DNA of 64,000 nucleotides from an uncultured Actinomycetota bacterium. Lineage in GTDB: Bacteria > Actinomycetota > Thermoleophilia > RBG-16-64-13. The stretch lies in assembly GCA_963701105.1 (NCBI GenBank), contig OY969565.1, forward strand, positions 1,101,086 through 1,165,085. The letters run 5' to 3'. The notes beneath the pieces are model-generated. The model did no database searches and had not been told where the DNA came from. It was given only the letters and a program-made list of their open reading frames with translations. Shown here in pieces: positions 1 through 38,787 of the stretch. Position 1 is the first letter of the stretch, and each line of letters begins with the position of its first letter. A program made the translations under genes and the position numbers.

Positions 1-1566
1 ATAATCGAGTTTACCATCCGAACTACGAAAATCTTCTGCGTAATTATTATCTGGCTGGCATCAATCTGTTCATCTTTCAGCCAGGATTCAACAAAAAGTT
101 TTGCTTTTAAGAATAACAAACCCCTGCGGAGAACTACCAATTTTTACCAGCCTGATTTATCGTACAGGATATGGCAGCAGTTCAATTTAATAAGAGAAGC
201 TAACTCAGGTGATCCGTTTGCTCAGCACGAACTGGGAATTAGATATCTTGTAGGTGAGGGAGTTGAAGCCGATACCCTTAAAGCTGCAAAATGGATTAAG
301 AGCGCCGCTGATCATGGTGTAACTGCAGCAAAATACAATTATGCAATTCTTCTTATTAACGGCTGGGGAACTGATTGGAACCCGTTTAAGGCGTTTACAT
401 ATTTTAAAGAAGCTGCTGAAGAAGGAATGCCGCAGGCACAATATGCAGTCGGACTGCTTTATACGGATAATCTTATCGTAAAAAGAAACTGGGGAAAAGC
501 TTTCAACTGGATAAATAAATCCGCTCAAAAAGGAAATGAAGACGCAAAGGAAACTCTAAAAGAAATAAAAACTAAGATCCCTGAATCGAAAATCGATACC
601 ACAGCTTCCAACCTTAACAAGGAAGATCAGGAAATTGGGACACAGGACAATTCATCCATCAAATCTTCACTGGGATTGGTGTATATAGATTTTGAGGATG
701 TGCTGGATACGATTCCGAATGTTACTAACAGAAGACTGCTTGAAGATTTAACTCACTCAGGTTATTCTATCCTTTCAGACTCAATTAAAAATAGCATACA
801 AGACACCAGCTTTACTTCGATCTCTCAGTTTATTCCCCTGATACATAAAGCTGCAACATTTGGGAGCCCGGAGGCATTAACATTTCTTGGTAAGCTTTAT
901 GAATCCGGAATTTATTTTGATAAAAATCTTCTCTCAGCAATTGAATATTATATCAGGGCTGCAAGACTGGATAGTCCTACCGCATCAATTCTTCTGTATA
1001 AAATGCAGAAAGCAGGAAAGTTCTTTCCTTTATTAAAGAAAGAAAGTGATGCAGACAATCCCGTTGCATTATTCGACTGGTATGGACTTGACGTATTAGG
1101 GTTTGATAATCAGATAACTATAACTGATGCGTTGAAGCTGCTTGAAAGATCTGCTGATAAAAACTTTTTACCCGCTTTAGTTGAGTATGGATTATATTAT
1201 TATTCCGGAAATGTTAAATTGCAGAATATTAAAAAAGCATTTTCCTTATGGCAGAAAGCTGTAAATCTTGGATCCGAAGAAGCGGAAACAAGAATGATTG
1301 CTGCGGTAGTACTTGATAGCTTATCCTATCTGAATTATAATGATGATATTGATAAGCTTTTCTCAGCGTCAGATAATGGTTCTGTACTTGCACAAACTGC
1401 TTTAGGTTATGCATACGAAAACGGGATAGTTTTGAAGAGAAATAAGGCTAATGCGGTAAAGTACTACAGGGACGCAGCGCAAAGGGGAAACAGGTTTGCT
1501 TATGAAAAATTAAAATACTTATACGATGCAATCCGCCCGTCATCACAGGAATTCGAGATAGACTAG
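1..1566 (+). CDS. Sel1-repeat (TPR-like) secreted protein, 5' end at or beyond the window edge
   Basis: Frame of ORF 427..1566 is open back to base 1 (IIEFTIRTTKIFCVIIIWLASICSSFSQDST...). It shows a signal-peptide-like stretch and further Sel1 repeats (AQHELGIRYLVGEGVEADTLKAAKWIKSAA; AQTALGYAYENGIVLKRNKANAVKYYRDAA). Confidence 0.85.
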   Translation: MIEFTIRTTKIFCVIIIWLASICSSFSQDSTKSFAFKNNKPLRRTTNFYQPDLSYRIWQQFNLIREANSGDPFAQHELGIRYLVGEGVEADTLKAAKWIKSAADHGVTAAKYNYAILLINGWGTDWNPFKAFTYFKEAAEEGMPQAQYAVGLLYTDNLIVKRNWGKAFNWINKSAQKGNEDAKETLKEIKTKIPESKIDTTASNLNKEDQEIGTQDNSSIKSSLGLVYIDFEDVLDTIPNVTNRRLLEDLTHSGYSILSDSIKNSIQDTSFTSISQFIPLIHKAATFGSPEALTFLGKLYESGIYFDKNLLSAIEYYIRAARLDSPTASILLYKMQKAGKFFPLLKKESDADNPVALFDWYGLDVLGFDNQITITDALKLLERSADKNFLPALVEYGLYYYSGNVKLQNIKKAFSLWQKAVNLGSEEAETRMIAAVVLDSLSYLNYNDDIDKLFSASDNGSVLAQTALGYAYENGIVLKRNKANAVKYYRDAAQRGNRFAYEKLKYLYDAIRPSSQEFEID

Positions 1567-26886: not shown

Positions 26887-28158
26887 ATGTGTAGAATTAA
26901 AAAAATATTATTTCTTATCTGTTTATTGCTTACACCGGGATTTATTTTCGGACAGTCGCTTGATTCGTTAATGAACCGCGCAATTGAAGTTAGTCCCAAA
27001 CTGAAAATGCTCCAGGCGAAGTCTGATGCGGCTGCAAGCAGAATTGATCAAAATTCAAATCTTCCGGATCCCACTTTAACATTAGGACTGGCAAACCTCC
27101 CTGTTAATTCATTTTCGTTTACGCAGGAACCAATGACAGGTAAAGTTATCGGGTTAAGCCAGGGTATTCCATTCCCCGGAAAACTTGGTGCTGTTGCGGA
27201 TGTTGCCGGGAAAGATGTTGATATAATTCAGCAGGAAATTATAGATGCAAGGAATGAAATAATAAAAGATGTGAAACAGAATTATTATGAACTGTGCTAC
27301 ACCAGGAAATCTATAACAATTGAGAATGAAAATCTGAAACTCCTTAAGGAGATTTCAAAAGTTGTAAAAACAAAATATGAAGTATCAACAGCAAGCCAGC
27401 AGAATCTATTAAAGGTTGAACTTGAACTGACAAACATTAGTGATAAAATTGAAGACCTTAAAAGTAAAGAAGAATCATTACAGGCAATTTTAAATGCTGA
27501 ACTCCTTCTTCCGGCTGATAATAAAATAACAACTAGTGAAATCGGCGAAATAAATTTTCAGAATTATTCTTCAGATGCACTCGATTCGCTCGCAGTTAAG
27601 CATCGCCCTTACTTAAAAGGATTTCATATCGCACAGGAAAAAGCTTTGATGCAGGAAAATCTTGCAAAGTACGACCGCTACCCGAACTTCAATCTTTCTG
27701 TTCAATATGCACAAAGAGATGATATTGCAAAAACAAACACACCTTTAACTGATTTTTTTTCGGTAATGATTGGAGTTACACTTCCGTTAAACTACGGTGG
27801 CAAAACAACTGCAAAAGTAGAAGAAGCTGAATCAATGCAGCAGATGTACAATCAACAATATTTACTTGCTCAGCAGGTTTTAAATCAGAATTTCGGTTCT
27901 TCTGCTGCGATCTTAAATTCTCTTTGTAAAAGAATTAAGCTGATAAAAGAAGGAGAATTTCCACAGGCTCAACAGGCATTTAATTCTGCTTTATCAAGTT
28001 ACCAGGTTGGTCAGATTGATTTCTTAAATGTAATTGAATCGCAGACAAAACTTTATACTGTTGAAACAAAACTCTACAGGTTGAAGACAGATTACTTAAA
28101 AGAAATTGCATCTCTCGAATTCCTTACAGGAACAGATTTGAATAAGAGTTTGAAATAG
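26887..28158 (+). CDS. cusC: TolC-family outer-membrane efflux protein (CusC-like)
   Basis: Motifs LPDPTL...MTG..IGLSQGIPFPGKL, RYPNFNL, GVTLPL and SYQVGQIDFLNVIES; upstream of cusBA. Confidence 0.85.
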   Translation: MCRIKKILFLICLLLTPGFIFGQSLDSLMNRAIEVSPKLKMLQAKSDAAASRIDQNSNLPDPTLTLGLANLPVNSFSFTQEPMTGKVIGLSQGIPFPGKLGAVADVAGKDVDIIQQEIIDARNEIIKDVKQNYYELCYTRKSITIENENLKLLKEISKVVKTKYEVSTASQQNLLKVELELTNISDKIEDLKSKEESLQAILNAELLLPADNKITTSEIGEINFQNYSSDALDSLAVKHRPYLKGFHIAQEKALMQENLAKYDRYPNFNLSVQYAQRDDIAKTNTPLTDFFSVMIGVTLPLNYGGKTTAKVEEAESMQQMYNQQYLLAQQVLNQNFGSSAAILNSLCKRIKLIKEGEFPQAQQAFNSALSSYQVGQIDFLNVIESQTKLYTVETKLYRLKTDYLKEIASLEFLTGTDLNKSLK

Positions 28159-28167
28159 GAGATTATA

Positions 28168-29859
28168 ATGAAAAAGAAATATTTAATAATAAGTTTAATA
28201 ATAATTGCAGTTGCTGCAGTCGGATTAATTTTAACTACACCTTTCAGTAGCAGTAATGAAGTAAAAACACAAAAGCAGTTATACACCTGCGGAATGCATC
28301 CACAAATAATTGAAGATCATCCCGGCGATTGCCCTATTTGCGGGATGAAGCTCGTTCCGGTTAAGAATAGTACCTCTGGAAATGTAAAATCCGGGGAGCG
28401 AAAAATACTTTACTGGCGTGCACCGATGGACCCAAACGAAATTTATGATCATCCCGGAAAATCTAAAATGGGAATGGATCTCGTTCCTGTTTATGAAGAT
28501 GAAGAAGGAAATTCAGGAATTGTAAAAATCGATCCTGCTGTTGTTCAGAATATGAATGTTAAACTTGCAACTGTTGAAGAGAAAAATCTTTCTTCGGTTG
28601 TAACTACAAACGGTGTTCTTAAGTCAAATGAAAAAACCGATTACATTGTCACGACTCGCGTGAGCGGCTGGATAGAAAAACTTTATGTTAATTACACAGG
28701 CGAAAAGGTTTCCAGAGGCGAAAAGCTAATGGATATTTATTCTCCTGAACTTGTTTCTGCCCAACAGGAGTTACTTACAGCTCTTTCCTATAATAATAGT
28801 GTAAGCCAGTCATCTATAAAAAATATTCTTGACAGCGGAAATGAATTGGTTAAAAATGCAATCCGCAAACTTCAGCTTTTGGAAGTTCCCGAAAAAGATA
28901 TTGAAAAACTGAAGGAGACAAAAGAAATAAAAACTTATGTAACTCTTTATGCACAAAACAGCGGAACAGTTATTTCCAAAAATGTTCTTGAAGGGCAAAA
29001 GATAATTGCGGGAATGCCGCTTATGCAGATATCTGATTTATCAAACCTGTGGCTGCTTGCCGATGTTTATGAATATGAGTTATCAAAAATCGATGTCGGT
29101 TCACCAGCAAAAATAAAATTTAATTATCTGCCGGGACAAACATTTAACGGTAAGGTTTCCTTTATTTATCCGACACTCGATCCAAAATCAAGAACAGTAA
29201 AAGTGCGTCTTGATATAAATAATTCAAACGAAAAATTAAAACCTGAAATGTTTGCCAATGTTGAAATAAGCGGAAAGGATTTTGGACTCACTCCGGTTAT
29301 ACCCGAAAATGCTGTTATCAGAAGCGGAACAAAAGATATCGTTATCCTATCACTAGGCGACGGCAAATTCAAACCTCAGACTGTAACTCTTGGCGGTTAC
29401 TCAAACGGATACTACCAGGTGCTTAAGGGACTTACTGCAGGATCAAAAATAGTTATCTCTGCACAGTTCTTAATTGATTCTGAAAGTAATCTTAAATCCG
29501 CAATCGGTATGATGCAGGATACTCCCCCGGATTCTTCAACTCCTGAAAAGCAGATGGATATGAAGAAAGATAAAGAAATTAAAAAACCGAAAGAAAAAAA
29601 TAAACCTAATTCCGAATCGGAAATAAAGCAGAACAAAAAAGTAGAAGCAACTACAGAAAATATTGTCCGTACGGGAGTAATTGATTTACAGGCAATCGAT
29701 AAAAATAATGATGGAAAACTTTTCCAGGATGAAATGGATTGGAATGTAATCTCAGATAAATTTGGTAAATGCACTCTATGCGGAATGACACTTACAGAAT
29801 TGCCGATTGAGCAGGTAAAGAAAAACCTGATCGAAAACGGATTTAAGGTCAAAGAATGA
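28168..29859 (+). CDS. cusB: CusB-like RND periplasmic adaptor with three heavy-metal-binding modules
   Basis: Motifs YTCGMHPQI...CPICGMKL, YWRAPMDP...KSKMGMDLVPVY, IYSPELVSAQQE, YPTLDPKSRTVKVR, AQFLIDSES and C-terminal CTLCGMTL. Confidence 0.92.
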   Translation: MKKKYLIISLIIIAVAAVGLILTTPFSSSNEVKTQKQLYTCGMHPQIIEDHPGDCPICGMKLVPVKNSTSGNVKSGERKILYWRAPMDPNEIYDHPGKSKMGMDLVPVYEDEEGNSGIVKIDPAVVQNMNVKLATVEEKNLSSVVTTNGVLKSNEKTDYIVTTRVSGWIEKLYVNYTGEKVSRGEKLMDIYSPELVSAQQELLTALSYNNSVSQSSIKNILDSGNELVKNAIRKLQLLEVPEKDIEKLKETKEIKTYVTLYAQNSGTVISKNVLEGQKIIAGMPLMQISDLSNLWLLADVYEYELSKIDVGSPAKIKFNYLPGQTFNGKVSFIYPTLDPKSRTVKVRLDINNSNEKLKPEMFANVEISGKDFGLTPVIPENAVIRSGTKDIVILSLGDGKFKPQTVTLGGYSNGYYQVLKGLTAGSKIVISAQFLIDSESNLKSAIGMMQDTPPDSSTPEKQMDMKKDKEIKKPKEKNKPNSESEIKQNKKVEATTENIVRTGVIDLQAIDKNNDGKLFQDEMDWNVISDKFGKCTLCGMTLTELPIEQVKKNLIENGFKVKE

Positions 29860-29872
29860 TTGAGAACAGTGG

Positions 29873-29933
29873 TGTCATTCTTAGCTTGACTCAGAATCTT
29901 TTTAAAAGACCCTGAACCAGGTTCAGGGAGACA
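29873..29933. mobile_element. MITE/REP-like double-hairpin element (TGTCAT...GACA family), copy 1
   Basis: TGTCATTCTTAGCTTGACTCAGAATCT-TTTTAAA-AGACCCTGAACCAGGTTCAGGGAGACA; perfect stem CCCTGAAC/GTTCAGGG. Confidence 0.65.
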
Positions 29934-29985
29934 AAATCAAAACTATCTTTTTAATGGAAAATGAATTTTTAATCAGGAGATTTAG

Positions 29986-32900
29986 ATGATATCCAGCGAT
30001 TCACAAAAAGAAGGATTGATTCAGAAACTCATTGAGTGGTCAATCAACAATAAATTTTTAGTAATACTTTTTACTGCCGCACTTATTCTCGGCGGAATTT
30101 GGGCAGTCCTTAACACTAAAGTAGACGCTATTCCGGATCTGAGCGATGTGCAGGTTATTATTTATACCGAATACCCCGGGCAGGGCCCGCAGATTGTGGA
30201 AGATCAGGTTACTTATCCTCTTACAACAAAAATGCTTTCAGTCCCTTATGCAAAGGATGTACGCGGTTATTCATTCTTCGGATTTTCGATGGTGTATATA
30301 ATATTTGAAGATGGTACGGATCTTTACTGGGCACGAAGCAGGGTCCTTGAATACCTGAACGGATTACGTTCTCAATTACCAGAAGGCATTAGTCCGCAGC
30401 TCGGTCCTGATGCCACAGGTCTCGGCTGGGTTTATCAATATGTACTTCAATCAGACAAGCGAAACCTGCAGGAGTTAAGATCTATACAGGATTATTTTCT
30501 AAAGTATGAGTTGTCTTCAATTCCGGGTGTTTCCGAAGTTGCAAGCGTTGGCGGATATGTAAAACAATACCAGGTAAATGTTGATCCTACAAAACTTGCT
30601 TACTATGGAATTCCACTTCAGAAAGTTAAAATGGCTATCCAGAGAAGCAATAATGATGTGGGGGGTCGGCTGCTGGAAATGGGTGAAGCAGAATATATGG
30701 TCCGCGGGCTGGGATATATAAAAAGTATAGATGATCTAAAGAAGGTTGCAATAGGTGTTTCATCTAATTCAGGTTCACCAATATACCTGGGTGATGTGGC
30801 AGATATAAATCTTGGACCGGAACTGAGACGTGGTTTAGCAGACTGGAATGGTGAAGGTGAAACCGTCGGCGGAATAATAATAATCCGTTACGGAGAAAAT
30901 GCCTTATCTGTTATTGAAAAAGTTAAGGAGCGTCTTGCCGAACTAAAAAAATCTTTACCTGCTGATGTTCAGATAAAAACCGCATACGACAGATCCAGTT
31001 TAATTGACCGTGCGATTAATAATCTTAAAGACAAGCTTTTTGAGGAAACCATTGTTGTTGCATTAATTATTATTCTTTTTCTACTTCATATCAGGAGTTC
31101 ACTCGTTGCAATATTCACTCTTCCCACTGCAGTGCTTGCTGCATTTCTTGTAATGAAAATGCAGGGAATAAATGCAAACATTATGTCTCTGGGTGGAATT
31201 GCAATTGCAATCGGTGCAATGGTTGATGCTTCAATTATCCTTGTTGAGAATGCACAGACGCATATGGTGCATAACCAGGAGAAACCTTTAAGTGAAAGAA
31301 TACCGCACTGGAAAGTAATACTGGAATCAGCTAAAGAAGTTGGTCCCTCAATATTTTATTCACTTCTAGTTATAACAGTTTCATTCATTCCTGTTTTCAC
31401 ACTTGAACAACAGGAAGGCAGAATGTTTAAACCTTTAGCGTTTACAAAAACATATTCAATGGCTGCTGCTGCAATATTAACTGTTACCATAGTTCCGATT
31501 CTTCTTGGATATTTTGTAAGGGGAAAGATGAAAAGAGAAGATGAAAACCCCATTACAAAGTTCCTGGCAAAACTGTATCATCCGGTCGTTGATTTCGTAA
31601 TGAACAAAAGATGGTGGGTAATGGGAGCAGCTGTTCTTATTGTACTGGTAACTTACTTCCCATTCTCTCAATTAGGTTCCGAGTTCATGCCTCCACTCGA
31701 TGAAGGTGATCTTCTTTATATGCCCACAACTCTTCCCGGTATTTCAATTACAAAAGCAAAAGAACTTCTTCAGCAGACAGATAAAATAATTAAATCATTC
31801 CCCGAAGTTGAATCAGTGTTTGGAAAAATAGGAAGAGCGGATACTCCTACTGATCCGGCACCGCTTTCAATGATTGAAACTACAATAAGATTAAAGCCGC
31901 ACGACCAGTGGCGATCAGGAATGACTACTGAAAAACTTATTGAAGAAATGAATAACGCAATCCAGATTCCAGGTTTAACAAATGCCTGGACGATGCCTAT
32001 CAAAACCAGGATAGATATGCTCTCAACGGGAATTAAAACTCCTGTAGGAATTAAAATTGCAGGACCCGATTTGAATGTTTTGCAAAACATAGGCAAACAA
32101 ATTGAAGAAGTTGCCAAAACAATTCCCGGGACACGCTCAGCTTACGCGGAAAGATCTGTGGGCGGAAATTATGTTGATTTCAATATTAACCGGGACGCTA
32201 TTGCACGTTACGGTTTAACCATTGGTGATGTACAGGATGTTTTTATGTCTGCTATCGGTGGAATGAATATAACAAAAACAGTAGAAGGACTTGAAAGATA
32301 TCCGGTTAATCTTCGTTACCAGAGAGATTACAGGGAAAATCTTGAAGCATTGAAGCGTGTTCTTGTTCCTACTCCTGCCGGCGGAAATATTCCGCTTGAA
32401 GAACTCGGATCGTTTGAAGTTAAAAAGGGTCCTCCGATGATCAAATCTGAAAATGCCCGACCAAATACCTGGGTTTATATTGATATACAAAACATCGATG
32501 TAGGAACTTATGTTGACAGGGCAAAAGAAATTATAAACAGCAAGGTAACTCTGCCTCCGGGCTATTCAATCAAATGGAGCGGACAGTTTGAATATATGGA
32601 AAGAGCATCGAAACATTTAATGCTTGTAATTCCATTAACTATCCTAATCGTAATAGTACTGCTTTATATGAATACAAAATCAATTCTGAAAACAGGAATT
32701 GTACTTCTCGCACTTCCCTTCTCAATGGTTGGGGCAATCTGGTACCTGTATATCGCGGGATTCCATTTAAGCGTCGCTGTTTGGGTTGGTGTTATTGCAC
32801 TTCTTGGTGTGGATGCAGAAACCGGAGTGGTTATGCTTCTTTATCTCGATATAGCTTATGAGAAATTCAGGAAAAAAGGTTTGCTTACAAGTATATCAAA

Positions 32901-33162
32901 TCTTAGAGAGGCAATATTTGATGGAGCGGTTAAGCGAGTCCGTCCGAAACTTATGACAGTACTAACAATGCTTTTCGGTCTTCTTCCGATTTTGATAGGA
33001 ATGGGAACCGGAAGTGATGTAATGAAAAGAATAGCTGCCCCGATGGTAGGCGGAATTCTAACAAGTTTAATTCTAGAACTCACTGTTTATCCGGCAATCT
33101 TTTTTTCAATTAAGAAAAGAGAAGTTAGTAAACAACTAAAAATTAACAATGAACAGTTATAA
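29986..33162 (+). CDS. cusA: CusA/SilA heavy-metal (Cu+/Ag+) RND efflux pump
   Basis: Motifs DAIPDLSDVQVI, LGPDATGLGWVYQY, NIMSLGGIAIAIGAMVDA, EFMPPLDEGDLLYMP, WTMPIKTRIDMLSTG, RVRPKLMT and RIAAPMVGG. Confidence 0.95.
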   Translation: MISSDSQKEGLIQKLIEWSINNKFLVILFTAALILGGIWAVLNTKVDAIPDLSDVQVIIYTEYPGQGPQIVEDQVTYPLTTKMLSVPYAKDVRGYSFFGFSMVYIIFEDGTDLYWARSRVLEYLNGLRSQLPEGISPQLGPDATGLGWVYQYVLQSDKRNLQELRSIQDYFLKYELSSIPGVSEVASVGGYVKQYQVNVDPTKLAYYGIPLQKVKMAIQRSNNDVGGRLLEMGEAEYMVRGLGYIKSIDDLKKVAIGVSSNSGSPIYLGDVADINLGPELRRGLADWNGEGETVGGIIIIRYGENALSVIEKVKERLAELKKSLPADVQIKTAYDRSSLIDRAINNLKDKLFEETIVVALIIILFLLHIRSSLVAIFTLPTAVLAAFLVMKMQGINANIMSLGGIAIAIGAMVDASIILVENAQTHMVHNQEKPLSERIPHWKVILESAKEVGPSIFYSLLVITVSFIPVFTLEQQEGRMFKPLAFTKTYSMAAAAILTVTIVPILLGYFVRGKMKREDENPITKFLAKLYHPVVDFVMNKRWWVMGAAVLIVLVTYFPFSQLGSEFMPPLDEGDLLYMPTTLPGISITKAKELLQQTDKIIKSFPEVESVFGKIGRADTPTDPAPLSMIETTIRLKPHDQWRSGMTTEKLIEEMNNAIQIPGLTNAWTMPIKTRIDMLSTGIKTPVGIKIAGPDLNVLQNIGKQIEEVAKTIPGTRSAYAERSVGGNYVDFNINRDAIARYGLTIGDVQDVFMSAIGGMNITKTVEGLERYPVNLRYQRDYRENLEALKRVLVPTPAGGNIPLEELGSFEVKKGPPMIKSENARPNTWVYIDIQNIDVGTYVDRAKEIINSKVTLPPGYSIKWSGQFEYMERASKHLMLVIPLTILIVIVLLYMNTKSILKTGIVLLALPFSMVGAIWYLYIAGFHLSVAVWVGVIALLGVDAETGVVMLLYLDIAYEKFRKKGLLTSISNLREAIFDGAVKRVRPKLMTVLTMLFGLLPILIGMGTGSDVMKRIAAPMVGGILTSLILELTVYPAIFFSIKKREVSKQLKINNEQL

Positions 33163-33192: not shown

Positions 33193-33615
33193 ATGAAAAA
33201 CGTTCGCTTTATTAACACAGCAATCTTTACTGCAGTTTTAACTTTATTCCTGATATCTGGTACTCTTGCCCAGGATAAAAAGGATGATGCCTGCTGTAAA
33301 TCTTCGGATAAGAAAACAGAAAAGATGGAACACTCAGATAAAGATTGTCCCGGTATGAATAAATCGATTGAAAAGTTGGGAGATAATCAGTCCACCAATC
33401 CGGAAGCTAAACAGGTTGACAGCAAACTTGTTGCGTGGAATATTGTTTGCCCCGTGAGAGGTGAAGAAGTAGATCCGGAAGCAAATAAAGTAGAATACAA
33501 TGGAAAAGTGTACGGATTCTGCTGCAACGGCTGCGATACCAAGTTTATGAAAGATCCTGTAAAGTATTCCAAAAATCTAAGTGAAGATGGCAAAACTTTT
33601 GTTGGAACCAAGTAA
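33193..33615 (+). CDS. Exported YHS-domain protein
   Basis: Signal peptide, CCK and CPGM motifs, then CPVRGEEV...EYNGKVYGFCCNGCDTKFMKDPVKY. Confidence 0.85.
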   Translation: MKNVRFINTAIFTAVLTLFLISGTLAQDKKDDACCKSSDKKTEKMEHSDKDCPGMNKSIEKLGDNQSTNPEAKQVDSKLVAWNIVCPVRGEEVDPEANKVEYNGKVYGFCCNGCDTKFMKDPVKYSKNLSEDGKTFVGTK

Positions 33616-33626
33616 TATAAATATTA

Positions 33627-33650
33627 GTAGCTCAGGACTCCTGTCCTGAG
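33627..33650 (+). repeat. GTAG-REP-like hairpin
   Basis: GTAG-CTCAGGAC-TCCT-GTCCTGAG; the 20-mer core is identical at 38792-38811. Confidence 0.8.
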
Positions 33651-33718
33651 CTTACATTTTTTTGATGCTAATAAGCACATGGGCTTCTTCTTTTCTTTCT
33701 ATTGAATACATGACCCTG

Positions 33719-34045: not shown

Positions 34046-36118
34046 ATGAAAAACAAACATCACGGTCACGACAAACATTCAGAAATGGATCATACAAAAC
34101 ATAATGACCAAAGTTCTCATGAAAAGATGAATCATAAAAAAGATGAGCACTCAGGACATAACCATTCCGCACACCATGGTCATATGATTGAAGATTTCAA
34201 GAAAAGGTTTTGGATATCACTCGGAATAACAATTCCAATCCTACTACTCTCCCCTCTTGTTCAGCAATTTCTCGGACTAAAAGAAACTTTGCGCTTCAGT
34301 GGTGACTTATATGTTTTGTTCGCACTTTCAACATTCACGTTTTTCTACGGCGGCTGGCCTTTTTTAAAAGGACTATTTGATGAGTTGAAAAAAAAGCAGT
34401 CCGGGATGATGACATTAATCGCACTTGCAATTTCGATCGCCTATTTCTACAGCGGTGCGGTTGTGTTCGGAGTTAAAGGTGAGGTATTCTTCTGGGAACT
34501 CGCAACCCTGATTGATATTATGCTTCTCGGTCATTGGATAGAAATGAAATCAGTAATGGGCGCTTCAAAAGCCCTAGAAGAACTTGCCAAACTTATGCCG
34601 GATGAAGCTCATAAAATTGATGAAGACGGGAATGTTACTGGTGTTCCGGTTTCCGAACTTAAGCACGAAGCTAAATTATTAATAAAACCGGGAGAAAAAA
34701 TTCCGGCCGATGGAAAAATCTATGAGGGTAAAACGTCCATTAATGAAGCTATGATTACAGGCGAGTCAAAACCTGTTTCAAAAAGTGAGGGCGATAGTGT
34801 GATTGGCGGTTCAATAAACGGCGAAGGATCAATTAAAATTGAAGTTGAGAAAATAGGTGTTGAAACTTTCCTTTCGCAGGTGGTAAAAATGGTTAAGGAA
34901 GCACAGGAAAGTAAATCCAAAACTCAGAATTTTGCCGACAAAGCTGCATTCTGGTTGACTATTGTCGCAATTACTTCCGGCGCGTTAACAATGTTTGTAT
35001 GGCTTGTGTTTACCGGGCAAAGTTTTAATTTCGCATTATCCAGAACAGTTACGGTGATGGTAATTACCTGTCCTCACGCTCTCGGTTTAGCAATACCGTT
35101 AGTTGTTTCAGTTTCAACAGCTCTTTCCGCAAAGAGTGGTTTACTCATAAGAAACAGAAACGCATTCGAACAGGCAAGAAAGATCCAGGCAATCATTTTT
35201 GATAAGACAGGAACATTAACCAAAGGTGAATTCGGGGTAACGGAAACTATTAGTTTCGATAAAGATTATGACGAAAAAGAAATATTAAAATATGCTGCAG
35301 CAATTGAATCAGAATCAGAACACCCAATTGCATTAGGGATTGTTAAATCAATAGAAGAAAAATATGATCTTAAAGATTTCAACTCAATTCCCGGTAAAGG
35401 TGTGGAAGGAAAAGTTGAGGGCAAAGATGTGAAGGTTGTTAGTCCCGGTTATCTTGAAGAAAACAAGATTGAGACAAAAGAAAAAGATAAAATAGATAAA
35501 CTGTCCGGGCAGGGAAAAACTGTTGTATTTGTTTTGATTGAAAATAAACTGGTCGGAGCAATTGCATTAGGTGATATTATCCGCGAAGAATCTAAAGAAG
35601 CAATAAAGCAGCTGAAAGAAATGGGTGTTAAACCTATGATGCTTACCGGAGATAATAAGCAGGTTGCTAAATGGGTCGCAGATGAACTCGGACTTGATGA
35701 TTATTTTGCAGAAGTACTTCCCGATAAAAAAGCAGATAAAGTAAAAGAAGTGCAATCACGCGGATTAATTGTAGCAATGACAGGCGACGGTGTAAACGAT
35801 GCCCCCGCACTGGCACAGGCTGATGTTGGAATTGCTATAGGCACAGGAACGGACGTAGCGGTTGAAACTGCAGATATAATTCTAGTAAAAAGTAATCCGA
35901 AAGATGTTGTTACATTAATTAAATTTTCAAAAGCAACTTATAGTAAAATGGTTCAGAATTTAATTTGGGCCACAGGTTATAATCTTATCGCTATTCCCCT
36001 TGCTGCGGGAGTTTTGTTTTCGGATGGGATTGTTTTAAGTCCTGCAATGGGTGCTGTATTAATGTCACTCAGCACTATTATTGTTGCAGTAAACGCAAAG
36101 TTGTTAAAGGTTAAATGA
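34046..36118 (+). CDS. copB: Copper-translocating P1B-3 type ATPase (CopB)
   Basis: His-rich N-terminus, TGES, CPH in the TM, DKTGTLT, SEHP, TGDGVNDAPAL, WATGYN and MSLST. Confidence 0.93.
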   Translation: MKNKHHGHDKHSEMDHTKHNDQSSHEKMNHKKDEHSGHNHSAHHGHMIEDFKKRFWISLGITIPILLLSPLVQQFLGLKETLRFSGDLYVLFALSTFTFFYGGWPFLKGLFDELKKKQSGMMTLIALAISIAYFYSGAVVFGVKGEVFFWELATLIDIMLLGHWIEMKSVMGASKALEELAKLMPDEAHKIDEDGNVTGVPVSELKHEAKLLIKPGEKIPADGKIYEGKTSINEAMITGESKPVSKSEGDSVIGGSINGEGSIKIEVEKIGVETFLSQVVKMVKEAQESKSKTQNFADKAAFWLTIVAITSGALTMFVWLVFTGQSFNFALSRTVTVMVITCPHALGLAIPLVVSVSTALSAKSGLLIRNRNAFEQARKIQAIIFDKTGTLTKGEFGVTETISFDKDYDEKEILKYAAAIESESEHPIALGIVKSIEEKYDLKDFNSIPGKGVEGKVEGKDVKVVSPGYLEENKIETKEKDKIDKLSGQGKTVVFVLIENKLVGAIALGDIIREESKEAIKQLKEMGVKPMMLTGDNKQVAKWVADELGLDDYFAEVLPDKKADKVKEVQSRGLIVAMTGDGVNDAPALAQADVGIAIGTGTDVAVETADIILVKSNPKDVVTLIKFSKATYSKMVQNLIWATGYNLIAIPLAAGVLFSDGIVLSPAMGAVLMSLSTIIVAVNAKLLKVK

Positions 36119-36443: not shown

Positions 36444-36486
36444 TTAGTTAGTTAATATTATAATAAACTCAATGAAGGAGGTTCTA

Positions 36487-36951
36487 ATGAATATTTTAAA
36501 GAAAATTATGCGGTATAACACTATTCTTTTTACGGGAATTTTGTTTTCAGTTTTAATAATTGCTCCACAGTCTTTCGCACAGCAGAATATGGGAAATATG
36601 CATAACAATATGAACCAGAATATGCAGCACCAGATGAATAATATGCATGAAATGATGCAGCAGATGAACAATATGAATGATCAAATGGGAAATATGATGC
36701 AGCAGCAGAATCAAATGCAGAATATGCAGGGAATGAATTCACTGATGGGAAATATGCATAATATGTCCGGGCAAATGAAAGACATGTTGTCTCAAATGGA
36801 TGAGATGATGCAGAACAAATCTTACCAGACGAATGAGGGAATGCACAAGAACATGGAAGAAATGATGGACAATATGAAAAACATGATGAACAATTTTAAA
36901 GGGATGATGAATAACTTCGAAGAATCAAAACCAGATAAAACTCAGAAGTAA
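36487..36951 (+). CDS. Secreted Met/Asn/Gln-rich protein
   Basis: AGGAGG RBS precedes the ATG at 36487; signal peptide ends SFA|QQ; about 33 Met and 5 His in the 123-aa mature part. Confidence 0.8.
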   Translation: MNILKKIMRYNTILFTGILFSVLIIAPQSFAQQNMGNMHNNMNQNMQHQMNNMHEMMQQMNNMNDQMGNMMQQQNQMQNMQGMNSLMGNMHNMSGQMKDMLSQMDEMMQNKSYQTNEGMHKNMEEMMDNMKNMMNNFKGMMNNFEESKPDKTQK

Positions 36952-36953
36952 GA

Positions 36954-37802
36954 ATGTCCTTAAATAGAAAATTTCTCATTTCATTTGCTATTTTGTTTGC
37001 AGGTTCGCTTAGTGTTAATGGACAGAGTAAATGGTCAGTCAGTACAAACTTACAGTTTGCAAGCGGCAATTATCTATCTACCGAAAGGTTAAACAGCTAT
37101 TACCTGTTCGGTGGTGTAAGATATGAAACCGATGATTATTCAATTGCCCTGTCCATTCCTTTTATAGTTTCAAACGGACAGAATGTTTCGCAGTTCGGAA
37201 ATATCTATTTACCCAATCATATGGGTTCGGGTTCTTCTGGTATGATGGGAACAGGAGGTCAGGGCGGAGGCCATATGCCGGGCAGCGGAAGTTTGCTCTC
37301 CACTTCATCATCTGAAAATTCAGGTATTGGTGATCTTTACCTCTATTCTAATTACAACCTTTTTAATCAGTACTCATCGCCGTTAGGTTTAGCTATCGGG
37401 GGTTATATTAAATTCCCAACTGCATCCACAGCAAGTGGATTTGGTACAGGTAAATTTGATTTCAGTTTATCAACCACACTAAAGAGGAGTTTTAACTCCT
37501 GGCTTGTTTATGCCAGCGGAGGATATATTTTTCTAGGGAAACCTGACAGTGTTGATTATAAAAATCCTTTTACTTTGAATGCAGGAATAGGAAAATCTTT
37601 TGGGGATGGTGATTTCTCGGTTTTATTAAGTTACAGTCTTTATTCTAAAATTCTGGATATTTATGAAATGCCGCAGGAATTATCTTTGGGATTAAATATA
37701 ATTGCAAATGATAAAATATCTTATTCTTTAATTGGTTCAGCCGGTCTCTCAAACTCTACTCCTGATTACGTATTCTCCGCAGGATTAAAATATAATTTAT
37801 AA
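36954..37802 (+). CDS. Outer-membrane beta-barrel (MetA-pathway/SphA-like transporter) with a Met/His/Gly loop
   Basis: Signal peptide; GIGDLYL, IKFPTA...GFGTGKFD; loop NHMGSGSSGMMGTGGQGGGHMPG; C-terminal AGLKYNL. Confidence 0.7.
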   Translation: MSLNRKFLISFAILFAGSLSVNGQSKWSVSTNLQFASGNYLSTERLNSYYLFGGVRYETDDYSIALSIPFIVSNGQNVSQFGNIYLPNHMGSGSSGMMGTGGQGGGHMPGSGSLLSTSSSENSGIGDLYLYSNYNLFNQYSSPLGLAIGGYIKFPTASTASGFGTGKFDFSLSTTLKRSFNSWLVYASGGYIFLGKPDSVDYKNPFTLNAGIGKSFGDGDFSVLLSYSLYSKILDIYEMPQELSLGLNIIANDKISYSLIGSAGLSNSTPDYVFSAGLKYNL

Positions 37803-37954: not shown

Positions 37955-38497
37955 TCAATCCAGACTGCTTTTTGCATCGTTGCCATGATCTCTCAATTGA
38001 GCATCAAACCATTGATGTATAGCATTTATTACTTCAGATTGCGTTGAAACAAATGTAAGCTGTGCCCCATCAGGTAATTTTTTATATTCAACTTTAAACT
38101 TACCCTTTGCTCCGGATAAAATATCTAAGCCGGGCATATTCATTCCGTGCAGAGTTTTGGGATCTCTGAAATCCGCATTTGAAAATAAAGTACATTCTTT
38201 TTTCAGGTGACTTTGTACCAGGGCTGCTTGTGTCGTGTCTTTCATATCTTTTGTCTTTATTATTAAAATACCCCCGTTATCATCTTTGATAAAATAGTGA
38301 GTGACTTTATTCATATCAAAAGGCATAACCATCGGACTTTCGGAATGAATCATATGTTGCCTGTGCATCGAAGTTGAATCACTCATATGATTATTGTTTT
38401 CATCCTGTGCATATGAACTGCTGATTATAAACAGGCAGGCAAAAACCAGCATAAGTAAAGTATATTTAATTTTCCCGATTATTGAAGTTGTTTTCAA
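37955..38497 (-). CDS. Exported His/Met-rich conserved hypothetical protein
   Basis: TTG start at 38497 with AGGAG 6 nt upstream; signal peptide ends SYA|QD; NHMSDSTSMHRQHMIH...MPFDMNKVTHYF...GG; ends QLRDHGNDA. Confidence 0.7.
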   Translation of the reverse strand: MKTTSIIGKIKYTLLMLVFACLFIISSSYAQDENNNHMSDSTSMHRQHMIHSESPMVMPFDMNKVTHYFIKDDNGGILIIKTKDMKDTTQAALVQSHLKKECTLFSNADFRDPKTLHGMNMPGLDILSGAKGKFKVEYKKLPDGAQLTFVSTQSEVINAIHQWFDAQLRDHGNDAKSSLD

Positions 38498-38563
38498 TTT
38501 AATCTCCTGAGAATAGTTTTTAAACTCTGTTAAAATTTCCCTCACTCCCCTTCCACAATTTTT

Positions 38564-38586
38564 ACCTGCCTGCATACAAGGCAGGT
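38564..38586. repeat. CCTGCCT-N7-AGGCAGG hairpin element
   Basis: ACCTGCCT-GCATACA-AGGCAGGT. Confidence 0.7.
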
Positions 38587-38787
38587 CTCTTCTTCCTTTA
38601 GGCATATAAACAAGCTGGTCAATTTCTTGTGATTTTTTCGCATCTTCTGTTTTTGAATTATCTACAAGCTGTTTTACTTTATCGGGAACCCCGACATTTA
38701 TTTTACTTTTTATATCATTAATTAGTTTAAACATAACAAGGGAAGATGATTTACTCAACAATTAATTTTTATTCGATCTTCTGATCC

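Follow-up and report, generated by a model that had tools for sequence, protein, structure and literature searches.

A conserved family of methionine-rich exported proteins paired with an outer-membrane barrel in copper/silver islands

The periplasmic handling of Cu(I) and Ag(I) is known mainly from proteobacterial systems: CusF, SilE/PcoE, CopC and the multicopper oxidases. Apo-SilE is disordered and becomes helical once about 6-8 Ag(I) are bound. Here, we describe the gene for an exported protein of extreme methionine (Met) content that lies in a copper/silver island of contig OY969565.1 (assembly GCA_963701105.1), within a stretch of 64,000 nucleotides at positions 1101086-1165085 (hereafter the window). 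The encoded protein (the window protein) belongs to a conserved, previously unnamed family and is not an orphan. With the gene of a PF13557-type outer-membrane β-barrel it forms a newly recognised conserved two-gene module. Judging from sequence and genomic context, it probably binds Cu(I)/Ag(I) in the periplasm through thioethers and acts together with the barrel, as a functional analogue of SilE/PcoE or CusF rather than a member of either group.

The closest described proteins are SilE and PcoE, for which reference sequences were taken from a Klebsiella michiganensis plasmid. Like these, the window protein is Sec-exported, free of cysteine (Cys), about 120 aa long when mature and encoded in a Cu/Ag resistance island. 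Its candidate ligand residues recur at i, i+3/i+4 and line one helical face, as is described for SilE in PMC5008109. Nevertheless, the model NF047789, which scores SilE at 285 bits and PcoE at 154 bits, does not match the window protein at E ≤ 0.01. The best BLASTP alignment (E 0.063 over 34 aa) is not significant, and hhalign gives a probability of 0.04% against SilE+PcoE. The motifs MxxHxxxxxHxxM and HxxMxxxHxxM given in PMC5008109 were not found in the window protein by regular expression. SilE uses histidine (His) together with Met (nine His and four Met were mutated, according to PMC5008109), whereas the 33 Met of the window protein are joined by just 5 His of poor conservation. A barrel partner, which usually accompanies the Met-rich family, is lacking for SilE. 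With no model match, no homology and the motifs absent, the protein may work like SilE/PcoE but is not a family member. An earlier interpretation made from the DNA letters and translations only (the sequence-only reading) had seen no likeness to SilE/PcoE or Csp, and the searches above, together with the absence of Cys and of a DUF326 match, bear this out.

Other systems resemble parts of the locus. Csp1 and Csp3 share with it the concept of a helical bundle core lined with soft-metal ligands, possibly for many Cu(I). Those bundles, however, are Cys-lined and four-helical, whereas the window protein has three predicted helices, and its thioether ligands, in place of thiolates, are expected to be weaker and tolerant of oxidation. 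CusF/SilF are small periplasmic proteins of cus-type islands, and like them the window protein would hand Cu(I)/Ag(I) to an exporter via Met ligands. CusF differs in being a small β-barrel with one Met2His(Trp) site; the window protein is predicted to be helical, has tens of Met and does not match the Pfam CusF family. MxxM/MxxxM clusters that recruit Cu(I)/Ag(I) are known from inserts of the CueO/CopA multicopper oxidases and from the Mets motifs of Ctr1 (PMC11494321 and PMC5008109), but these are segments of larger proteins, whereas here the whole protein is Met-rich. For the barrel, the nearest parallel is PcoB/CopB, an outer-membrane barrel of copper islands that has a flexible Met/His-rich segment and shares its operon with a periplasmic partner (PMC12509749). 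In PcoB/CopB that segment is a His/Met-rich disordered N-terminal domain and the partner is PcoA (PMC12509749). Here, by contrast, the barrel is of the PF13557 type, the Met-rich part consists of a helical protein with a gene of its own and of a loop inside the barrel sequence, and the partner is not a multicopper oxidase.

The methionine-rich protein and its family

The intact open reading frame (ORF) encodes 154 aa plus stop. Its signal peptide has a K/K/R n-region, a hydrophobic core and an SFA/QQ cleavage site, an architecture found in all family members, and the Gln at +1 of the mature chain is 100% conserved in 79 family sequences. Another possible ATG, at 36472, overlaps the strong AAGGAGG ribosome-binding site and does not match orthologue N-termini. 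The mature 123 aa comprise 33 Met (26.8%), 26 Asn, 19 Gln, 5 His and 0 Cys, exactly the Met, His and Cys counts that the sequence-only reading had made by hand, and the protein is 16% charged. Of the 4690 assembly ORFs that encode 80 aa or more, it has the highest Met content (22.6%, against a mean of 2.2% and a standard deviation of 1.7%), a figure that refers to the 159-aa ORF from 36472 with the signal peptide counted.

The Met residues are spaced mostly by 3 (15 times) or 4 (8 times), less often by 1 (6 times), 6 (twice) or 11 (once), with no M-x-M. Their Fourier peak lies at 98 degrees (3.67 residues per turn) and was equalled by 0 of 5000 shuffles in the helical band and by 6 of 5000 at any period, so that the helical periodicity noted in the sequence-only reading proved to be significant. 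At the DNA level, tandem repetition is faint and degenerate, with 68-72% matches at a period of 30 nt and at one of 21 nt, the latter equal to one heptad, which argues that the gene is not a recent product of slippage.

Relatives were recovered by exhaustive and profile-based searches. Neither Pfam nor NCBIfam gave a match above threshold for the Met-rich protein, and a word-indexed protein search with the single sequence found none, a method that low-complexity sequence defeats. Exhaustive phmmer comparison with 1.84 billion representatives yielded eight genuine relatives, each a secreted Met-rich protein of 145-171 aa, and a further 3 came from the word-indexed search when it was run with a profile. 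When the neighbours of barrel homologues were inspected, orthologues 48-77% identical to the window protein were found in metagenome-assembled genomes (MAGs) of Ignavibacteria, Ignavibacteriales and Melioribacteraceae. A profile search centred on one such genome (G425, locus L016) placed a family member in 83 of 301 genomes of this Ignavibacteria-type order. In a phylum-level sample, 21 of 401 genomes had the family, and all but a few of these belonged once more to that order. No account of the family turned up in full-text literature searches. A tblastn search of plasmids also gave no match, a negative weakened by the BLAST low-complexity filter.

Homologue searches among the taxonomy-based relatives and the phylum of the window's assembly were empty, an artefact of sampling the wrong lineage and not a sign that the family is rare. 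The 1.34-Mb contig switches abruptly from ~65% to ~36% guanine-cytosine (GC) content near 998.5 kb, and the window falls in the low-GC part. The contig is probably a chimeric join of two organisms with the window in its Ignavibacteria-like part, and given the compositional switch, the taxonomy-based relatives belong to the other organism.

Known domains were also considered. A weak Pfam DUF948 match in 12 of 14 family members (best E 4e-4, cut-off 37 bits) was judged to be coiled-coil or compositional noise. The CpxP/Spy/ZraP family (Metal_resist, PF13801) reached at best E 0.03 in 5 of the 14 members, far under its 29.2-bit cut-off, and its LTxxQ motif is absent; this match, too, was attributed to coiled-coil character or composition. 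CusF, CopM (DUF305), CopC and CopK domains had no match in the window protein or the 14 members, even at E ≤ 1.

The family is defined by a Sec signal with Gln at +1, a mature chain of 120-176 aa, three amphipathic helices, about 20 near-invariant Met, essentially no Cys and location in a Cu/Ag island, and the window protein fits this definition. Could an ORF of such extreme low-complexity composition, for which a word-based homology search is empty, nevertheless be spurious or decaying and without function? The probability of this is practically negligible: frame, signal peptide, length and ribosome-binding site are kept in >80 genomes, and conservation is position-specific.

Methionine conservation and predicted structure

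Met columns are more conserved than the others. Across 14 sequences, the columns that hold Met in the window protein are 93% Met in close orthologues, compared with 64% identity elsewhere, and in distant members they are 65% Met, compared with 22% for other columns. In 79 unique sequences, the set used for the conservation figures that follow, 21 positions are at least 85% Met with at most 5% Ile/Leu/Val. Near-invariant Met is found at, among others, mature 15, 19, 22, 25, 29, 39, 46, 56, 59, 62, 66, 73, 77, 95, 99, 103 and 109. A few further sites of the core admit strictly Leu (mature 70 and 110) or Tyr/Phe (mature 106). The presence of strictly Met positions beside strictly Leu or Tyr/Phe positions indicates that Met is selected as Met and not as a generic hydrophobe. 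Met content ranges from 19% to 32% (median 27%) and 78 of the 79 sequences have no Cys. The His count varies from 1 to 14, and conservation of His is moderate and confined to three or four positions.

Asn and Gln behave differently. Their joint content spans 17% to 43% in the same sequences, and when distant members are included it spans 12% to 46% while Met stays at 16-32%; in the more distant members, Lys, Glu and Asp take the place of Asn and Gln. The Asn/Gln-richness of the window protein is, on this sequence evidence, lineage-specific filler and not a conserved functional feature. The sequence-only reading had allowed for disordered or condensate behaviour on account of this richness. As Asn/Gln content varies while Met stays, we reject a prion or condensate interpretation as the main feature.

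Position-specific conservation also bears on a possible role as a sacrificial oxidant sink, in which exposed Met would scavenge the periplasmic reactive chlorine or oxygen species that arise from copper stress. The model for this is MrpX of Azospira, a short periplasmic protein with 20% Met that leaves the cytoplasm via Sec; hypochlorite oxidises it, and YedY/MsrP reduces it again (PMC4436054). The window protein resembles MrpX in composition, and copper stress is known to oxidise periplasmic Met (PMC9302797). MrpX, however, has no sequence conservation and is 44% charged (PMC4436054), whereas the family has position-specific Met, low charge in the window protein, a helical Met face and a copper context, with no reductase linkage. 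No YedYZ/MsrPQ reductase occurs in the window island, and a weak molybdoenzyme-like ORF is near only 3 of 80 loci, all closely related. A PF00174 (MsrP-family) gene is absent from 38 of 40 carrier genomes and is >1.5 Mb away in the other two, and the PF00174 match in the window's assembly falls in the 65%-GC part of the chimeric contig. A buried helical Met face would also be a poor scavenger design. We therefore consider an oxidant sink improbable.

The predicted structure agrees with the periodicity. AlphaFold2 without an alignment gave two long helices, with a predicted local distance difference test score (pLDDT) of 83 and a predicted template modelling score (pTM) of 0.30. With the 14-sequence alignment it gave three helices, at mature 5-43, 50-78 (plus a short helical turn at 80-83) and 86-115. 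All 30 helix Met fall on heptad positions a/d/e/g and none on b, c or f, and the only other core-capable hydrophobics are two Leu, two Phe and one Tyr. The amphipathic pattern proposed earlier, for which AlphaFold had been suggested as a check, thus reappears as predicted helices with Met confined to one face. A profile search of the Protein Data Bank (PDB) returned designed coiled coils and generic bundles only, which permit no assignment to a fold family.

The barrel partner and the copper/silver context

Genomic context was sampled at ±8 kb around 80 hits (81 family ORFs in 80 other genomes), with neighbours annotated by BLASTP against a limited reference set, the references themselves having been identified with Pfam. 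A barrel homologue lies immediately downstream of the Met-rich gene, on the same strand, in 69 of the 81 loci. The spacing is typically -3 to +18 nt, and the stop and start codons of the pair often overlap. Among the 301 genomes of the order, 83 have the Met-rich gene and 80 the barrel: 75 carry both, 8 the Met-rich gene alone, 5 the barrel alone and 213 neither. For 288 of the 301, the two genes are thus either both there or both missing (Fisher p 6e-55, without correction for phylogeny).

Between two conserved strands, the barrel has a flexible loop with Met and His. Its length in 65 barrels varies from 10 to 58 residues (median 34). It contains 10.2% Met and 3.0% His, compared with 1.8% and 0.5% outside the loop, a ~6-fold enrichment.

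Such tight gene coupling could mean that the Met-rich protein serves the barrel structurally and independently of metal, as a helical lid or plug in the periplasm or as an assembly factor. The cargo of the barrel might then not be metal at all, Met would be no more than a flexible hydrophobe, and the copper location would be a regulatory convenience. PF13557 barrels are otherwise tied to hydrophobic-compound pathways (Pfam description), and in distant members the substitutes for Met are mostly Ile/Leu/Val. Against this, about 20 positions resist Leu/Ile/Val in the 79 sequences while the neighbouring core is fixed as Leu/Tyr/Phe, the barrel loop is itself enriched in Met and His, and family members without a barrel still adjoin genes for P1B ATPases, multicopper oxidases, YHS proteins and cupredoxins. 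A purely structural role appears quite unlikely.

The barrel profile also matches the Pseudomonas amyloid channel FapF (PDB 5o65), weakly and in several short stretches (E 2e-4, 24 bits). By analogy, the Met-rich protein could be a secretion substrate: a FapF-like barrel would export the Met/Asn/Gln-rich protein to form an extracellular Met-rich layer or surface coat, possibly a metal trap. The position of the substrate-like gene, directly before that of the barrel in 69 of 81 loci, and the Asn/Gln-richness of the window protein would suit such a role. However, the weak match may reflect mere shared barrel ancestry in the PF13557 superfamily, and the neighbours showed no further genes of fap type, although no search was aimed at them. 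The Fap system pairs the FapF channel with β-repeat FapB/C substrates, whereas the Met-rich protein is predicted to be α-helical. Asn/Gln-richness is not conserved in the family, and barrel-less members exist. Export as a surface coat is, in our estimation, improbable.

The association with copper and silver genes is close to universal in the sample. Homologues unlinked to metal loci, the outcome that the sequence-only reading had named as contrary to its proposal, were not the pattern found: 78 of the 81 family ORFs have within 8 kb a Cu/Ag gene, here one for CusA/B/C, a P1B ATPase, a multicopper oxidase, an HMBD or YHS protein or a cupredoxin, and the three exceptions are on short contigs or near contig ends. 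Genes recorded in the flanks of the 81 loci include HMBD (59), CusA (45), CusB (35), OEP (29), SHOCT (29), P1B ATPases (28+13), multicopper oxidase (23) and YHS (19+13). The distant member L009 adjoins YHS, Rieske, P1B ATPase and two multicopper oxidase genes. Distant members L024-26 adjoin CusA, DUF2231, DUF302, SHOCT, HMA/YHS-ATPase, cupredoxin and YHS genes. Further distant members adjoin SHOCT, and L027 lies beside a sigma54 response regulator and cytochromes.

Several other Met-rich proteins were observed in these islands. In many genomes an HMBD protein is encoded directly upstream of the Met-rich gene. Small HMBD proteins with Met-rich N-terminal regions occur at L022:6956-7660 and L007:122-616, and in one small HMBD protein of these islands a sequence (MMSNHKAMMMKKGMMKDGMMNCDST) is repeated exactly in tandem, with 3-4 copies. 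Copper islands of related MAGs also encode secreted Met-rich proteins of another family, which looks unrelated to the first; its members have 82-143 aa, 18-23% Met and the motif ...MMGYMMNNQN.R..MM..MF.... By BLAST this second family is present in 4 of 81 loci (L003:2188-2604, L005:8195-8626, L018:10663-11073 and L019:12287-12535).

In the window (Table 1), the island runs from a weak HYC_CC_PP-like gene through genes for a CusC-type OEP, a CusB-type adaptor, CusA, a YHS protein, a P1B ATPase and a SHOCT protein to the Met-rich gene and the barrel. The Met triad of CusA (M573/M623/M672 in E. coli numbering) is conserved in the window CusA, as judged by alignment to E. coli CusA structures. The ATPase has 14 His in its first 47 residues and a CPH motif, both read from the translation, and these two features mark it as CopB-type. 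No CusF-type gene was found among the island ORFs scanned with Pfam and NCBIfam. In the closest relatives, the SHOCT, Met-rich and barrel genes form a conserved syntenic trio.

Three further observations concern the island. The N-terminus of the SHOCT protein contains Met, Trp, His and Gly (MFHGWMWGGGMWFGW). Directly after the YHS gene, a strong GC-rich hairpin at 33629-33652 (AGCTCAGGAC-TCCT-GTCCTGAGCT) scores as a bidirectional terminator. A convergent ORF at 37955-38761 (-) encodes a His/Met-containing product (..NNNHMSDSTSMHRQHMIHSESPMVMPFDMNK..) with no Pfam or NCBIfam match; this product is probably secreted, and its translation likely begins inside the 268-aa ORF.

Table 1. Features of the copper/silver island, in window coordinates
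Feature	Position	Strand	Basis and remarks
CusC-like OEP, CusB-like adaptor with HMBD domains, CusA-like resistance-nodulation-division (RND) pump	26887..33162	+	Pfam, NCBIfam (CusA TIGR00914)
YHS-domain protein, between cusA and the ATPase gene	33193..33615	+	Pfam PF04945; metal-binding domain
Copper P1B-type ATPase, CopB type	34046..36118	+	TIGR01511 at 1.5e-190; His-rich N-terminus, CPH motif
Small SHOCT membrane protein, 75 aa	36216..36443	+	Pfam PF09851; 43 nt upstream of the Met-rich gene
AAGGAGG ribosome-binding site	36475..36481	+	Read from sequence; 5 nt before the ATG at 36487
Met-rich exported protein gene	36487..36951	+	ORF and sequence; orthologues of 48-77% identity in Ignavibacteria-type MAGs
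Sec (signal peptidase I) signal peptide, ~31 aa	36487..36579	+	Cleavage after SFA; without lipobox Cys
Mature 123-aa protein	36580..36948	+	Three predicted amphipathic helices; a/d/e/g face almost entirely Met
Outer-membrane β-barrel, 282 aa, PF13557 (Phenol_MetA_deg) family	36954..37802	+	Pfam 2.8e-8; 2 nt after the Met-rich stop
Flexible Gly/Ser/Asn-rich barrel loop with Met and His (LPNHMGSGSSGMMGTGGQGGGHMPGSGSLLSTSSSENS)	37209..37322	+	Between two conserved strands

Proposed role and implications

So, is Met the ligand, or simply a hydrophobe? Four lines of evidence favour the ligand: Met-specific conservation beside Leu- and Tyr-specific positions, the independent enrichment of Met and His in the loop of the partner barrel, the exclusive copper/silver context, barrel-less members included, and known thioether chemistry. 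Mets motifs, the Met-rich helix of CueO and the CusA triad hold Cu(I)/Ag(I) via two to four thioethers, according to PMC5008109 and PMC11494321. For Met motifs that offer nothing but thioethers, Cu(I)/Ag(I) binding is established (Rubino et al. 2010 and, on CueO, Singh et al. 2011, as cited in PMC5008109).

We propose that the Met-rich protein would bind Cu(I)/Ag(I) via thioether sulfur, probably at sites of two to four Met between helices, with several ions probably bound per molecule. It would buffer periplasmic Cu(I) pumped in by the neighbouring CopB-type ATPase, and the metal would then pass to the barrel with its Met/His loop and/or to CusCBA. The apo protein may already be folded as a Met-core bundle, in the manner of a thioether Csp, or the fold may be gained on binding as in SilE; the AlphaFold2 helices carry no information on the apo state. 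The role may be that of metal storage or metal relay, and the frequent barrel pairing perhaps points to a relay or partner role more than to a free-standing sponge.

Several points weigh against this proposal. The Met at a/d positions could be a mere flexible hydrophobic core, and the Met-lined core was deduced from the heptad pattern. Confidence in the three-helix model is only moderate (pLDDT 68, pTM 0.51), and Foldseek found no PDB neighbour at E<1. The barrel is not obligatory, as the distant members L009 and L024 are without it, and in 7 of the 81 loci the Met-rich gene is followed by SHOCT, DUF302 and ATPase genes instead of the barrel.

A more specific mechanism can be formulated, although we regard it as unlikely. 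The protein would be a three-helix thioether counterpart of Csp, with ~30 core Met in roughly 8-10 stacked layers that enclose a column of Cu(I)/Ag(I). It would dock on the PF13557-type barrel and feed ions through the Met/His loop, so that the two genes would provide an energy-independent outer-membrane exit route for Cu(I)/Ag(I), distinct from CusCBA and PcoB.

In its predicted all-Met core and conserved barrel partner, the family is unusual among periplasmic soft-metal binding proteins. If it does bind Cu(I)/Ag(I), it would be a structurally different solution from the known ones, with methionine as its whole hydrophobic core. Its helical scaffold would then offer a natural model of multi-ion Cu(I)/Ag(I) sites built from thioethers alone, which is relevant for the de novo design of metalloproteins and for Met chemistry of the Ctr1 type. 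The two genes, both now 'hypothetical', would in that case serve as a marker pair for Cu/Ag resistance in metagenomes. The module is present in about a quarter of the sampled genomes of an abundant soil and sediment lineage. With binding confirmed, it would provide a first functional lead for PF13557-type barrels in metal islands and a candidate answer to how copper transits the outer membrane in bacteria without PcoB.

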